64,000 bases of DNA, taken from positions 128,001 to 192,000 of the forward strand of contig CAVUWV010000009.1 in assembly GCA_963745075.1 (NCBI GenBank), in the 5' to 3' direction. Every line of letters starts with the position of its first letter. The first letter of the stretch is position 1. The notes beneath the pieces were generated by a model, which saw only the letters and a list, made by a program, of their open reading frames with translations, was not told the DNA's origin and did not search any database. The position numbers and the translations under genes are program-made. This DNA is from Candidatus Hydrogenedentota bacterium (GTDB lineage Bacteria; Hydrogenedentota; Hydrogenedentia; Hydrogenedentales; SLHB01). Shown here piece by piece: positions 15,315-19,996 of the stretch.

Positions 15315-18300
15315 ATGAAATCATTGAAGCCGCACGTGGACGTGACCATGTACTCGACTGAACTGGACACAAACCTCCTGCACTCTTGGCGGACCCGCCG
15401 CGATCCCGACGCCTTTGCGGAATTGGTGACGCGGTACGGGCCGTTGGTCTATTCCGCGTGTCTCCGCGTCGTTCGCGACGCGCCGACAGCAGAAGACGTT
15501 GCACAAGAGTGTTTTGTGGAACTCTTGCAGACCGACCGGCGTGTACATTCGCTTCCGGGGTGGTTGCACACCATGGCCACCCGCCGCGGACTGGATCGGT
15601 TGAAAATGGAGCGACGCCGCATGGAACGGGAAGGGCGGTATGCGGGACAGCATCCCGCCTCCGTTCATCCCCAGTGGGACGACATCAGTCAATACGTCGA
15701 CGAAGCCATTGAAACACTTCCCGAGAAGATTAGGGGTCCCATCGTTCTGCGATTCCTGCAAGCACGGAGCTACGCGCAGCTCGCGTCCGAATTGGGAGTC
15801 CCGGCGTCCACGATCCAATACCGTTTGAATCAAGGCATCGACCGCATTCGCCGTCATCTCATCCGGCGCGGTATTCCCGTCGCTGGAGTTTCGCTTGTAG
15901 CCATGCTTAGTGCGGCGCCCGCTCACGCCTTGCCGGTTGCCGTTTCGGGCAACGTGGGCAAGATAGCCTTGTCAGGCGTCGCGACCGGGACTGTCTCAAC
16001 TGCTGCTGGACTCCAATCCGCACTTACGCTCGGAGGATTGCTTGCCGTGAAGAAGCTCGCTGCTGTCGTCATTGTGCTTGTCGCGCTTTCGTTCACCGCG
16101 GTTTATATCGTCACGCGGGACGCAACCAGACCGCCAGTGCAGAACACTGTGTCGCAAGAGACTACGCGGACTGAAAATACTGCACCGATCGTGCAAGACG
16201 TCTCCCCGGACGCGGCATCTCCGGCACCGTCTAACGAGGCAGGGGATGCAGATGTCGAAGTTTCCGGTGTGGTGGTGGACAACGACGGCAACGCCATGCC
16301 GGACGCCCTCGTCAAGGCAACGTGGCCAACCGGTTCGGGGTCGGTCCACACCGATGACGATGGCCATTTTCGTTTCACCTTTCCATCGGATTTCACGTCG
16401 GATGGACCGCTAACCTTCAACCGCCGCGTTTCCCACGGTGAACGAACGTCAACCTACACATTTCAGGGCGCTGTTACCGGCGATAACCTCTCCGGCGTGA
16501 TCGAAACGGGCTCCGGCAATGTGCGCGTCACGGGTGAACGTGTCGGGCACGGTAACGGCGCGATTGGCGTCTGGACCACGCTCATCACCCGTGGTGGTGA
16601 ACAATTTCCGGGAACGCTTACCCTTGCCGCAAATGGTCTCGCACGACTGACGGGGATCTGGGTCGATTCGTACGGTTCTCCCAATATTTCGGACGCAGGC
16701 GTGCCCGAAATCGTCACGTTCACCGCTACGCTCAATCAACTTAAAGCCTTTCCAGAGGATTTTGAAATCCCCGCACAGGGGCGCAATGACATTACCCTCG
16801 CCATGGACCTGACCGCATCGGTTAGCGGCAAAATCGTTGATACGAAGGATGTTCCACAACCTGACTGGGACGTGTTCATGCGCATGCAGAGTGAAGAGCG
16901 CTTGGCAGGCGAGAAGAGTGATGAAACTGGTCAATTTGCCTTTGCCGGGCTTGCGCCGGGTGAGTACCAACTGTTCGCCACTAACTCCACGACTGATGCG
17001 GCGGTCCAATACGCCGAAGGCCCGATCACGCTTCGCCCGGGTGACGAGATCGTAGGGATAACATTGGTTTGGGGACTCGGCTTGAACATTGTTGGCCACG
17101 TAACCGGCGAGGACGGTCAACCCATTGCAGGTGCGCGTGTTGAATCGTGGTTTGACCGCGCGGCCATTGGCGAGGGCAGCGTCTACCTTCCCCCCGAAAG
17201 TCAGACGGATGCGTCGGGCCGCTATGAACTGGCCGGTTTTCCCGAATTGGCGGGGTTGGAGGTAAATCTCGGGATCAACCATGAGGAGTATCTTCGGGCA
17301 AGTCGATACGGTGTGCGACTTGATGGTCACGAACAGGATTTCGTTCTTGTCGAAAAGCCGACCATTGAAGGACGCGTCGTCGACGCTGTTTCCGGCGACC
17401 CCATCACCCGCTACCGGATCAGAAGTTGGATTGGACAAGGAACGGCACCTGGCCACCGTGACGAAGATTATCTCCGAGGTACGTCACGCAGTTCTCTTGA
17501 GGATCACCCAGGCGGAGTATTCTCCTTCCGCCCAGATGGATACAACAGTGTACATATCGGCGTATCAGCGCCAGGATACCTCTCCGGCCTACAGACCGTC
17601 CCTGCGGTTGAACCGGGTGCAACCGTTCAAGATGTAGAAATACGCCTCAAGCGGACGGAACCAATACGAGGAACGGTTGTGGATATATCCGGGAAACCTA
17701 TATCCGAAGCTCGGATTTTCCTCGGGTATCCCTTAATGGTTGACGGATATATCGCAGTCGGAGGCGCGGGAGGGGTGGCCAATTCGGACGACGAAGGCAA
17801 GTTTACCATTACGGAATTCCCGCCATCCTTATCGGTCGTCTCCGCGTATCGAGAGGGCTACGCCCCTACTTGGACGGAGATTTCGTCACCCTCTTCGCCT
17901 CTAACGATTACGCTGACGGGAGGGGCGTCAGTCGAAGGCATCGTGACGTATGGTGGCGTTCCTTTGGACGACGCGCGCTTCTATGTGAACGCTAATATCG
18001 GGGAGACTGTCACCATGCAGACAGAGACCGGGAAGGGAGGAGCGTACTCACTCAAGAATGTTCCGACCGGTTCTGTCGCGGTGGTCGCCAGTTTTCACGA
18101 GGGTGGACTGTCCCGATGGATAAATCGCACCGTGACGATACATGATGGTCAGACCCTTCACGAGGACTTCGATTTTGGCGACGCCTACGACTCCTACGTC
18201 GAGGGTGTTCTCCTGCTCAACGGTACCCCCGTTCCCGTTTCCCTTCTCCGGGCCATCGTAACACGTACCAATGGCGACACCATCGCTTACCAAACCCAGA

Positions 18301-18533
18301 CCCGCGATGACGGCTCCTTCACGTTGGGCCCAATCCCCGCCACGACCTTGCAGTTTGGCGCCTACTTGACAGATGCCAGGACATCGTTCAGTGGTTTTGG
18401 TGCCAAGACATCGTTCAGTGGCGAAGCATCATGTTTGGCTCGTGAGCGACGATGTGCTCTCTCCAAGAAAGGGAGGAGCACATGGACGAGCAAGAAGAAT
18501 GGCGTCGAAGACGAGCGGTACAACGGTATTTGA
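15315..18533 (+). CDS. ECF sigma factor fused to a TM helix and extracytoplasmic carboxypeptidase-regulatory-like repeats; native C-terminus replaced by IS481 sequence
   Basis: DAFAELVTRYGPLVY, AEDVAQECF, GWLHT, sigma4 HTH; TM helix; repeated SGxVVDxxGxPxxxA motifs; last 54 aa derive from the IS. Confidence 0.9.
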   Translation: MKSLKPHVDVTMYSTELDTNLLHSWRTRRDPDAFAELVTRYGPLVYSACLRVVRDAPTAEDVAQECFVELLQTDRRVHSLPGWLHTMATRRGLDRLKMERRRMEREGRYAGQHPASVHPQWDDISQYVDEAIETLPEKIRGPIVLRFLQARSYAQLASELGVPASTIQYRLNQGIDRIRRHLIRRGIPVAGVSLVAMLSAAPAHALPVAVSGNVGKIALSGVATGTVSTAAGLQSALTLGGLLAVKKLAAVVIVLVALSFTAVYIVTRDATRPPVQNTVSQETTRTENTAPIVQDVSPDAASPAPSNEAGDADVEVSGVVVDNDGNAMPDALVKATWPTGSGSVHTDDDGHFRFTFPSDFTSDGPLTFNRRVSHGERTSTYTFQGAVTGDNLSGVIETGSGNVRVTGERVGHGNGAIGVWTTLITRGGEQFPGTLTLAANGLARLTGIWVDSYGSPNISDAGVPEIVTFTATLNQLKAFPEDFEIPAQGRNDITLAMDLTASVSGKIVDTKDVPQPDWDVFMRMQSEERLAGEKSDETGQFAFAGLAPGEYQLFATNSTTDAAVQYAEGPITLRPGDEIVGITLVWGLGLNIVGHVTGEDGQPIAGARVESWFDRAAIGEGSVYLPPESQTDASGRYELAGFPELAGLEVNLGINHEEYLRASRYGVRLDGHEQDFVLVEKPTIEGRVVDAVSGDPITRYRIRSWIGQGTAPGHRDEDYLRGTSRSSLEDHPGGVFSFRPDGYNSVHIGVSAPGYLSGLQTVPAVEPGATVQDVEIRLKRTEPIRGTVVDISGKPISEARIFLGYPLMVDGYIAVGGAGGVANSDDEGKFTITEFPPSLSVVSAYREGYAPTWTEISSPSSPLTITLTGGASVEGIVTYGGVPLDDARFYVNANIGETVTMQTETGKGGAYSLKNVPTGSVAVVASFHEGGLSRWINRTVTIHDGQTLHEDFDFGDAYDSYVEGVLLLNGTPVPVSLLRAIVTRTNGDTIAYQTQTRDDGSFTLGPIPATTLQFGAYLTDARTSFSGFGAKTSFSGEASCLARERRCALSKKGRSTWTSKKNGVEDERYNGI
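18374..18421 (+). repeat. Tandem internal repeats at the IS left end
   Basis: TGCCA(G/A)GACATCGTTCAGTGG twice, 27-nt period. Confidence 0.9.
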
Positions 18534-19648
18534 AGGGAGAGAAAGCCCAAACGATATGCACGTGTCTTGGGCGGACGGGGAGATGGCTCTACAAATGGCT
18601 GGAGCGGTACCAAACAGGCGAAGCGGAATGGTATCGGGAGCATTCGCGCAGGCCGATTCGATCGCCCTCGCGAACGCCCGCCGAACTCGAGGAAATTGTG
18701 AAGCATGTGCGGCTGCAATTGTACAACCGGGGCGAGTTTTGCGGAGCGCAGGCGATTCGCTGGCAAATCGAGGAGGAAGGGATAGAGCCGCTTCCCAGCA
18801 TTCGGACCATCGGACGCATCCTCGCTCGCCTTGGCCTCACCCATCGGCGCACGGGGCGCTACGAACCCAAGGGGAAAAGCTATCCGGCCTTGGATGCGCC
18901 TCGTCCCGGTTTCGTGCATCAAAGCGACTTCGTGGGGCCGTGCTATCTCCGGACACCCATCCGTTTCTACAGCCTGAACAGCGTCGACCTCGCCACCGGG
19001 CGCTGTGCCGTCGAGCCGGTTTTGGGCGGCAAAGACACCGTAGTGGATGCCTTGTGGGCGACTTGGCTGCGTTTGGGCTTCCCGAAGTACCAACAAGTGG
19101 ACAACGAGGCCGTATTCTACGGCAGTCCCAGGCATCCGCGCGGCATGGGCAAGCTCATCCGACTGTGCTTGCCCCTGGGGATCGAGCCGTGCTTCATCCC
19201 CTTGGCCGAGCCTTGGCGCAACGGCGTGGTCGAGAAGTTCAACGACCATTGGCGACAGAAGCTCTTGGGGCGGGTCATCATGGAATGCGAAGAGGATCTC
19301 AAGCGGGAGAGTCTGGCCTTCGAGCAACGCCACAACCTCCGCTATCGATACACCAAGCTCAATGGCAAGACCCCCATGGAGGCCTTGGCGGCTACCAACA
19401 AACCGCTGCGATTCCCCCGCAAGGAACGGCCACCCAAACTCCCTTTGTCCAAACCCGAGGCCGGATGCTATCACGTCATTCGGTTCATCCGCAGCGACGC
19501 CGTCTTCAACCTCTTCGGGGAACAGTTCTCGATGCCCTCCGAGGCTATCTACGAATATGTGTGGGCCACCGTGGACGTTTCCAGGCAGCGGCTCTTGCTG
19601 TATCTCGACGGCGAAGCAATCGACGAACGTCCATACCCGCTACGCTGA
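18482..19648 (+). CDS. IS481-family DDE transposase
   Basis: GGAGG SD; HTH with WLYKWLERY, SRRPIRSP; DDE residues in HQSDF, QVDNE, NGVVEKFN. Confidence 0.92.
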   Translation: MDEQEEWRRRRAVQRYLKGEKAQTICTCLGRTGRWLYKWLERYQTGEAEWYREHSRRPIRSPSRTPAELEEIVKHVRLQLYNRGEFCGAQAIRWQIEEEGIEPLPSIRTIGRILARLGLTHRRTGRYEPKGKSYPALDAPRPGFVHQSDFVGPCYLRTPIRFYSLNSVDLATGRCAVEPVLGGKDTVVDALWATWLRLGFPKYQQVDNEAVFYGSPRHPRGMGKLIRLCLPLGIEPCFIPLAEPWRNGVVEKFNDHWRQKLLGRVIMECEEDLKRESLAFEQRHNLRYRYTKLNGKTPMEALAATNKPLRFPRKERPPKLPLSKPEAGCYHVIRFIRSDAVFNLFGEQFSMPSEAIYEYVWATVDVSRQRLLLYLDGEAIDERPYPLR

Positions 19649-19660
19649 CCGGAAAAGCGT

Positions 19661-19811
19661 TTTCTGAGGCATGGGAGGTCTATCATCCGATGTTCAGAAA
19701 GGAGATGGGGAGCCTGTACGCTCCCCATCCCAACCCATCGTCTGATGAGCCTCACCGGGCTATCCCTCGGCGGGGTGCTCGCCAGCAAGAACCGCTTCCG
19801 TTTCACCCGGC
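19661..19811. ncRNA. Putative structured RNA in the IS 3' non-coding segment
   Basis: Four consecutive stem-loop elements seen by eye, including a perfect 10-bp GATGGGGAGC/GCTCCCCATC stem. Confidence 0.4.
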
Positions 19812-19833
19812 ACTGGCAGCTTATCATGCAAAT

Positions 19834-19879
19834 ACTGAACGATGTCCTGGCATATATTTCACTGAACGATGTGGTGGCA
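19834..19879 (-). repeat. Tandem internal repeats at the IS right end
   Basis: ACTGAACGATGT(CC/GG)TGGCA twice, 27-nt period, inverted relative to the left end. Confidence 0.9.
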
Positions 19880-19886
19880 CTTGAGA

Positions 19887-19996
19887 CCTACTTGCTAAAG
19901 CTCGAAGACGGCTCCTACCTCACCCCGACCTATGAAACGGTTACCACCACCCCCGGGGAAACAACCCAACACGATATCCTGCTGACCAGCCCTTGA
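19887..19996 (+). pseudogene. Detached 3' end of the ECF sigma factor gene
   Basis: YLLKLEDGSYLTPTYETVTTTPGETTQHDILLTSP* is in frame with ...LQFGA once the IS and one TSD are removed. Confidence 0.85.

Follow-up and report, generated by a model that had tools for sequence, protein, structure and literature searches.

The insertion sequence and its non-coding cargo

The window, that is, the whole 64,000-nt stretch of DNA analysed here, contains on its plus strand a 1520-bp insertion sequence (IS) at 18367..19886 with the termini TGACA...TGAGA, whose start base is shared with near-identical copies on contigs C23 and C21. Further partial copies are found on contigs C28, C20 and C15, and the genome holds three full-length copies, two partial copies with the RNA region described below and one end fragment. 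The copy on C21 (190361-191881) is flanked by its own 6-bp duplication and its transposase is frameshifted. In the window, an identical hexamer, CCTACT, stands at both IS ends as the left (18361..18366) and right (19887..19892) target-site duplication, both given on the plus strand. The interrupted host gene (15315..19996, plus strand) encodes, according to Pfam, an ECF sigma factor fused to carboxypeptidase-regulatory-like repeats, and its flanks share one reading frame across the target-site duplication. The same gene also encodes a predicted membrane segment, and the carboxypeptidase-regulatory-like repeats are several.

The single large gene of the element encodes a DDE/rve transposase of 398 amino acids (18452..19648, plus strand) with HTH and rve_3 matches. 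IS481 is its best family, with a score for NF033577 (IS481) of 113.6 bits, below the cut-off of 224, and the element is therefore called IS481-like. Most IS481 members make a 6-bp duplication, according to the part of PMC10045372 available. The element shares this trait with the family, together with a single HTH-rve transposase in one rve reading frame and subterminal repeats at its ends, but differs in its score below the NCBIfam cut-off, in its ends TGACA/TGAGA and in its RNA cargo. Two subterminal repeats of 21 nt at the left end (18374..18421, plus strand; repeat families D3 and I1-I3) are presumed to be transposase sites, and two further subterminal repeats lie at the right end (19834..19880, plus strand; D5, I2 and I3). 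An imperfect 18-nt inverted match (18397-18414/18449-18466) joins the second left-end repeat with the transposase start region and is a possible translational hairpin.

Between the transposase stop codon at 19648 and the right-end repeats (19834-19880) lies the non-coding region that the original prediction had flagged as the structured cargo of the element, a placement that was borne out. A 92-amino acid open reading frame on the minus strand that covers this region was rejected as a gene. Positions 19584-19600 and 19783-19799 form an inverted match of 17 nt, which inspection by eye did not reveal in the other IS481 copies and which was taken as chance.

A conserved fold with a pseudoknot

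A profile search over all loci gave 87 full-length matches, or 79 without near-duplicates, which have a mean pairwise identity of 72% and amount to ~45 effective sequences. The 79 homologues were aligned without the use of structure and RNAalifold was then run on the alignment, yielding 28 pairs, 21 of them with double changes. In a 34-pair model that includes a pseudoknot, 94.2% of the cells are paired and 23 of the 34 pairs have double changes; the observed pairing was reached in none of 500 shuffles (kinship through IS descent among the homologues inflates this test, and likewise that for the pseudoknot), and slid controls gave 24-40%. Covariation among homologues, which had been proposed with the original prediction as a check on the structure, was thus found. 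A pattern taken from domain 2 had been used to gather 58 of the 79 homologues; its columns are equally conserved in the other 21, which were found without it. At least 90% conservation is seen in 74 columns, of which 55 lie outside the search pattern.

Comparison of these homologues shows a conserved fold of ~155 nt with two stacked domains, a non-canonical purine-rich internal loop and a pseudoknot between the 3' tail and the apical tetraloop. This structured RNA, type I, occupies 19657..19811 of the minus strand (from the 79-homologue alignment, the covariation and covariance model R1, 150 bits), with a predicted +1 at ~19811 and a 3' end at ~19657. A structured stretch of ~185 nt had been put forward, and the structure holds, but the conserved element spans 19657-19811 and not 19649-19833; positions 19818-19826 belong to a promoter-like box outside the RNA proper. 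When single sequences were folded against shuffles, 19649-19833 gave z values of -2.68 (plus strand) and -2.14 (minus strand), only moderately beyond chance, and minus-strand 19657-19811 gave -3.27.

Domain 1 (19754..19811, minus strand) is made up of P1 (19806-19811/19754-19759), a symmetric purine-rich internal loop (19797-19805/19760-19768), P2, P3 and the tetraloop L3. Among the 79 homologues 95.3% of cells are paired in P1, 88.2% in P2 and 97.8% in P3, and the internal loop has an A.G/G.A swap between 19801 and 19764. Domain 2 (19675..19753, minus strand) comprises P4, a CUC/AGA loop, P5, tandem G.A pairs and P6, arranged around a variable hairpin (19704..19729, minus strand) that differs in sequence and length and is retained as a hairpin. 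P4 is the basal stem (19750-19753/19675-19678); it is 96.2% paired, has double changes in all four of its pairs and gives the strongest covariation in the molecule (z 29 and 21). The 3' tail (19657..19672, minus strand) has a conserved AUGCCU, an A-rich linker and the pseudoknot triplet CGC (19659-19657).

The pseudoknot has three base pairs and joins the last three bases of the tetraloop L3 (19780..19783, minus strand; GGCG in the window, consensus GGNR) to the tail triplet at the 3' end. These bases are complementary in 71 of the 79 homologues, compared with a mean of 35 and a maximum of 48 under 2000 shuffles. The triplet pairs are GCG/CGC (43 homologues), GAG/CUC (21), GGA/UCC (3), GGG/CCC (2) and others (2), and one IS3 clade contains both main types (GCG/CGC in 17, GAG/CUC in 14). 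Mutual information also picked out the long-range pair 19781 (tetraloop)/19658 (3' end), which had not been predicted, with a z of 15.8. A pairing of the AUGCCU tail with the loop strand of domain 1 was considered and is not claimed, as inspection by eye gave one compensatory case and several breaks.

All of the helical arms named in the original prediction are present in the sequence at the coordinates given there, and comparison sorts them differently. In 78 homologues the nested domain is conserved, and its stems CCGGG/CCCGG, GCGG/CCGC and TGCT/AGCA have 93-98% of their cells paired. The outer stem of hairpin A is not, with 23.5% of cells paired on the minus strand and 53.2% on the plus strand in the same number of homologues. 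Hairpin B, described as a perfect 10-bp stem, persists as a hairpin in almost every copy (73 of 79 have z<-2), but is a sequence-variable insert in a region of 37-63 nt. Hairpin C has an invariant sequence and is 99.4% paired, but covariation favours a long-range pairing of its bases with 19682-19693: an indel is gained and lost jointly at columns 74/169, columns 73/170 have one compensatory change and columns 83/160 give a z of 11. The basal stem, the tandem G.A pairs and the pseudoknot had not been anticipated. The minimum-energy fold of the whole RNA as a single sequence gives hairpins A and C and not the conserved domain 2, and domain 2 folded alone adopts the long-range form; hairpin C may, on these models, be a folding intermediate. 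Insertions of ~40 nt, often with a hairpin of their own, occur at one spot in the 3' strand of P2 (L029, L105, L126, L147, L159, L448, L464 and L476).

Strand, predicted promoter and ends of the RNA

On the minus strand the paired columns contain 89 G-U cells, compared with 53 A-C cells. An extended -10-like box (TG, one base, TAAGCT; 19818..19826, minus strand) lies 6 nt ahead of the predicted +1. In 53 of the 72 copies with flank a TAnnnT box precedes the first paired base, always with a spacer of 6 or 7 nt, compared with 8 of 360 control windows. All nine IS481-type copies with flank have the -10 box and none of the nine has a -35 TTG; among the 48 IS3-type copies 39 have this TTG, against 12 of 360 control windows. 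A generic consensus promoter scan of the window found no promoter, in line with the absent -35 in IS481-type copies. The families share no homology in the DNA upstream of the RNA, which is the transposase C-terminus in IS3 elements and the terminal repeat in IS481 elements; each IS family therefore seems to have undergone its own selection for the promoter. In the window, as read from the sequence, the inner right-end repeat overlaps the -35 region of the RNA promoter.

A terminator scan of the window found no intrinsic terminator at the 3' end of the RNA. Nor would a simple terminator explain the structure itself, which consists of 34 pairs, two domains and a pseudoknot and includes no terminator-like site in 19649-19833. 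Homologue lengths fall into all three classes modulo 3 (45, 19 and 15), so the RNA is not coding. Just 3' of the tail, IS3 copies with a GGAG loop (L009, L013, L023, L118 and others) have a short G+C hairpin, which on the opposite strand reads as a hairpin with a U-run and could stop antisense transcription into the RNA.

The flagged stretch is very probably a transcribed structured RNA, as judged from these sequence comparisons. The call of the minus strand, based originally on G-U pairs that extend an outer stem on that strand only, is strengthened by the covariation, the G-U excess, the purine-rich loops and the -10 box, and the signals likewise support a putative IS-encoded structured RNA that would be read inward from the right end, antisense to the window transposase. 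Three public runs were available at contig level with shares of 0.05-0.37; no piece covers the RNA in the run labelled as RNA, and the other run is probably DNA.

Distribution of homologues

Sampling covered the phylum of the window, one other phylum, metagenomes, plasmids and viral contigs. A copy with 75% identity lies in the same genome, where it follows an IS3 transposase and has the opposite orientation. The motif was found in 41 of 135 genomes of the window's phylum by BLAST and in 50 of the 135 with covariance model R1; in the second phylum R1 found it in only 3 of 151 genomes. A pattern scan of metagenomes gave at least 121 stretches, many of them chance matches. A search with the window transposase alone among genome contigs gave two loci. 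One transposase of 67% identity carries the label Hydrogenedentes in its source, no more than a hint at the phylum. One copy lies in a cultured bacterium, Acidisarcina polymorpha SBC82, on a plasmid after an IS110 transposase; BLAST searches of plasmids and phages otherwise gave chance matches, and loose patterns on viral contigs gave chance matches except for the locus L240.

The Rfam 15 covariance models gave no match in the window at the gathering threshold, so that no known Rfam motif accounts for the structure. At E<=10 the best match in 19550-19950 had 14 bits with E values of 3-10, which is the chance level. Scans of nine further loci gave nothing over the motif, and six more gave a single weak overlapping match, at 22.6 bits against 70 and on the opposite strand. 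No description of the motif was found in the literature, although motif databases or survey supplements could still hold it unremarked; as far as Rfam and the literature search reach, it is an undescribed RNA.

Carrier elements and relatives without the RNA

Contexts were tallied for 98 distinct full-length type I copies, nine of the labels being set by hand. An IS3 transposase lies upstream in the sense orientation in 48 of the 98, and an IS481-like transposase is antisense to the RNA in 13. The remainder comprise single-ORF rve genes (sense, 2), ISNCY (antisense, 2), IS30 (sense, 2), IS110 (sense, 1), an IS end only (IS3-type 17, IS481 1) and 12 unassigned copies, three of which adjoin an ISL3 transposase (divergent), a DUF1670 gene and an AAA ATPase. 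The comparison shows that putative type I RNAs are present with at least six transposase families and in three arrangements, namely sense, antisense and divergent, and similarity across the IS families is confined to the RNA itself. This does not support the RNA as a feature of IS481, as in the original prediction, since most copies are in IS3 and others in ISNCY, IS30, IS110 and ISL3 elements; nor does it support the antisense position as the point of the RNA, since most copies are sense-oriented, in IS3 elements. In the IS481 copies the RNA and the transposase gene converge, and the end of the RNA lies 8-14 nt away from the stop codon.

Among the 15 RNA-bearing rows of the window's transposase group, 14 have at least 67% identity over the matched segment; the fifteenth is a broken segment with 58% identity. 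A further 17 IS481-like loci at 28-58% identity run from the stop codon to the end repeats without the RNA, and several of these share an NNTANN flank with the RNA carriers. Most of the RNA-bearing rows were found through the RNA itself, and the unbiased part of this comparison is the transposase protein searches. Two IS3 relatives at 67-68% identity also lack the RNA. Since RNA-less relatives exist with similar flanks, the RNA is dispensable for the existence of these elements and for such target choice. Once acquired by an element it stays intact, to judge from the rows compared.

A tree of the RNA, built from 66 of 68 rows and 116 columns, is weak and has 10 of its 62 branches starred. It requires 13 label changes to place eight transposase groups, the minimum being seven, and it fixes neither donors nor order. 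Upstream IS3 similarity covers less than 150 nt in 21 of the 48 copies that have an IS3-type right end, and one copy is intermediate. Many copies are decayed relics consisting of promoter, RNA and IS3 right end with no transposase, so there is no sign of hosts keeping the RNA or of domestication. Around the relics with an IS3 right end neither a left end nor a target duplication is evident, and ordinary deletion can explain them.

Several loci have further features of their own. The relics L439-L478, L109, L183, L191 and others have 30-190 nt of upstream IS DNA, and in L026 the IS3 frame runs on through the RNA. L227, after an IS481-like transposase of 40% identity, has a different palindromic non-coding cargo in the slot between stop codon and end. 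In L197 (1144-1700) a CRISPR-like repeat array starts ~140 nt downstream of an element with a divergent RNA copy.

A second subtype and a variant without the domain 2 core

Weak R1 matches and a motif scan first revealed a second subtype, type II, which has the same apex as type I and a similar tail, with the orientation of the internal loop inverted. The pseudoknot is present in seven of eight distinct type II sequences, as is the -10 box. One carrier is a 1587-bp ISNCY element (L506:2600-4186 = C13 ~170099-171685) in which the RNA is antisense to the transposase; six near-identical copies of it occur in this genome (C13, C8, C15, C18, C26 and C32), and its flanks suggest a long duplication. 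Other type II sites are IS3 ends in both orientations, a position after IS21 istB and one after an IS110 gene. IS110 is thus associated with one of 98 type I copies and one of eight type II sequences.

A corrected type II pattern matched 10 stretches on viral contigs, five of them real by inspection (one a duplicate), and none of 61 relatives; the pattern was too strict, because it also missed the type II copies of this genome. Rfam gave no match for type II. The common ancestry proposed for types I and II rests on the shared features and on weak cross-scores. In L504 (1558-3465) an open reading frame of IS21 istA contains a type II domain 1 for which no pseudoknot tail was seen; this may be an insertion that was kept within a coding sequence. 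L505, also of type II, has ~100 extra nt ahead of the tail.

The L240 copy, on a viral contig, and an adjacent ISL3 gene are divergent. This variant retains domain 1 and the tail, and a plain helix stands in place of the conserved domain 2 core.

Possible functions

Our leading interpretation, held tentatively, is a free-standing small RNA gene that is a trans-acting passenger of ISs and whose product binds a host protein. A sigma-70 polymerase would transcribe the RNA from the +1 at ~19811, and the pseudoknot would lock and protect its 3' end, a role proposed because no intrinsic terminator follows the RNA. Because its position and orientation vary, the RNA would have its effect in trans, unlike a riboswitch, a terminator or an antisense RNA that works in cis. 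The invariant surface formed by the internal loop, the apex and the AUGC(C/G) tail would bind a host protein as decoy or scaffold, and the capture of this protein would aid the persistence or spread of any element that carries the RNA. The features kept by all variants are the apex, the pseudoknot, the tail and an invertible purine-rich loop module, which makes a binding surface likelier than an active site and is why a passenger that binds a host protein is favoured.

Ribosomal protein L25/CTC would be the first candidate partner, because the internal loop resembles loop E of 5S rRNA plus one C-G pair. Bacterial 5S rRNA loop E is the L25-binding site. The likeness lies in a symmetric purine-rich loop that can be drawn as stacks of G.A, A.U, A.A, A.G and G.G and that shows the A.G/G.A swap; the loop E sequence of the host is CAUGGUA/GAGAGUA, and the likeness, judged by eye, is inexact, with the extra C-G pair and several substitutions. 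The remainder of the RNA is unrelated to 5S rRNA and has no RF00001 match.

Bridge, omega and antisense IS RNAs are each known to serve one element family, and these systems supply two of the rival explanations. The loops of bridge/seek RNAs are programmable and vary with target and donor DNA. Like the bridge/seek RNAs of IS110/IS1111, the RNA described here is a non-coding IS RNA inside IS ends with two domains and large internal loops, and at two loci it adjoins IS110 transposases; a guide or scaffold bound by the transposase, as in these systems or the omegaRNA systems, is nevertheless very unlikely, contrary to the guide-like role that had been suggested. Its loops are invariant across elements with different ends, most loop columns being 85-100% conserved across families, with covariation that is non-canonical; it is common to unrelated enzyme folds (DDE and DEDD), most carriers encoding DDE enzymes; and close relatives lack it, including the 17 IS481-like loci, several with the NNTANN flank, and the two IS3 elements. 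In four IS481 elements there was moreover no cognate excess of left-end matches. The available main text of a recent preprint (bioRxiv 10.64898/2026.10.21.760802) mentions neither IS3 nor IS481. With the omegaRNA/reRNA of IS200/IS605/IS607 TnpB and IscB the RNA shares IS encoding, structure and a pseudoknot near the element end, but the element encodes only the 398-amino acid rve protein and no TnpB or IscB, both ends of the RNA are conserved with no variable guide, and there is no Rfam match. IS10 RNA-OUT and IS200 art200 resemble the predicted window copy in having their own promoter inside the IS and in being antisense to the transposase. RNA-OUT and art200 are complementary to the translation-initiation region of the transposase. 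A cis-acting regulator of the transposase of this kind, whether antisense RNA or attenuator, would agree with the convergent arrangement in IS481-like and ISNCY elements and with the 8-14 nt to the stop codon in the former, and binding of the transposase could switch the RNA off because the -35 region overlaps the inner right-end repeat. We give it little weight, however, as the RNA lies 3' of the reading frame and not over the ribosome-binding site, is mostly sense and downstream of IS3, IS30 and IS110 transposases, and is divergent upstream of ISL3 in two cases; its duplex energy with its own transposase leader also equals that with other leaders, in a comparison of only four elements.

The chief competitor, although unlikely, is a ribozyme of a new class that would cleave or ligate, for instance to generate the 3' end of the RNA itself or to process transcripts that read through the ends of an IS. 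The 74 highly conserved columns, 55 of them outside the search pattern, the long-range pseudoknot, the non-canonical loops and the missing intrinsic terminator after the tail in the window would all suit a catalyst, but no Rfam ribozyme matched at the gathering score or at E<=10, and 5' self-cleavage would release nothing because the RNA begins at the predicted +1. A fixed active site is also harder to reconcile with domain 2 loops that a plain helix can replace (L240) and a domain 1 loop that is inverted in type II. Distinctly less likely is a selfish or nearly neutral hitch-hiker, or a metabolite-binding sponge, for which IS ends are merely a safe vehicle. Similarity between IS families that is limited to the RNA, the weak tree with 13 label changes where seven would suffice and the 21 of 48 IS3-right-end copies with little upstream IS3 similarity (only one being intermediate) speak for it; yet the relics are mostly decayed with no left end or target duplication evident, no mobilising enzyme co-occurs, and the constant spacing of promoters that lie on non-homologous DNA implies that expression within the IS has been selected for. 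The slightest prospect is a folded single-stranded DNA signal in transposition. Single-stranded DNA and RNA are not easily told apart by comparative methods, as stated in the part of PMC5737381 available, and the location at IS ends and the RNA-labelled public run (contig-level, small share), with no piece over the RNA, would agree with DNA; the -10 box at fixed spacing, the G-U excess on one strand, the varying orientation relative to the ends and the RNA-type tertiary features speak against it.

The closest precedent for the favoured host-protein passenger is the 5'tnpA small RNA of IS200 in Salmonella, likewise a structured, IS-borne passenger RNA acting on the host in trans. In the available text of Ellis et al. 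2017 (PMC5435999), this RNA is processed from the 5' UTR of the transposase mRNA and base-pairs with a host mRNA. The RNA described here differs from that account in its own promoter-like box, its position mostly at the 3' end, its tertiary fold and its occurrence in at least six IS families.

More broadly, we consider it close to evenly balanced, leaning to doubt, that these sequences form a new superfamily of small pseudoknotted RNAs with at least two subtypes, an interchangeable module swapped among unrelated ISs that would aid transposons in general, as a ribozyme of a new class or by capturing a host protein that restricts mobile elements. If so, it would be an RNA-only accessory of transposition that is independent of the element family; were it expressed and useful to the element, it would point to a constraint on transposition on the host side from which the same RNA lets many IS families escape. 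A single fold that has its own promoter-like box occurs in both DDE and DEDD elements, whatever the orientation, and recently copied elements of one genome carry two RNA subtypes. Given its size and strong tertiary signal, the RNA lends itself to direct tests as a ribozyme or RNP candidate.

Riboswitches, hammerhead ribozymes and Hfq- or ProQ-dependent small RNAs fit poorly. A riboswitch or cis leader was rejected as the RNA is followed by the IS end, an antisense reading frame or unrelated DNA. The hammerhead core is CUGANGA and GAAA around a three-way junction; here CUGAUGA occurs on the non-RNA strand only, 50 of the 79 homologues have an extra base there (column 74), and there is no Rfam match. 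The Hfq and ProQ families were not found in the host genome (89.7% complete), and an Hfq- or ProQ-dependent small RNA was rejected on this ground and for the missing terminator at the 3' end. Small RNAs that sequester CsrA/RsmA have several GGA motifs in hairpin loops. L25 and CsrA were both found in the host genome, and the RNA has three conserved GGA motifs, which lie in internal loops or stems; a GGA in the apical loop is present in 24 of the 79 homologues.
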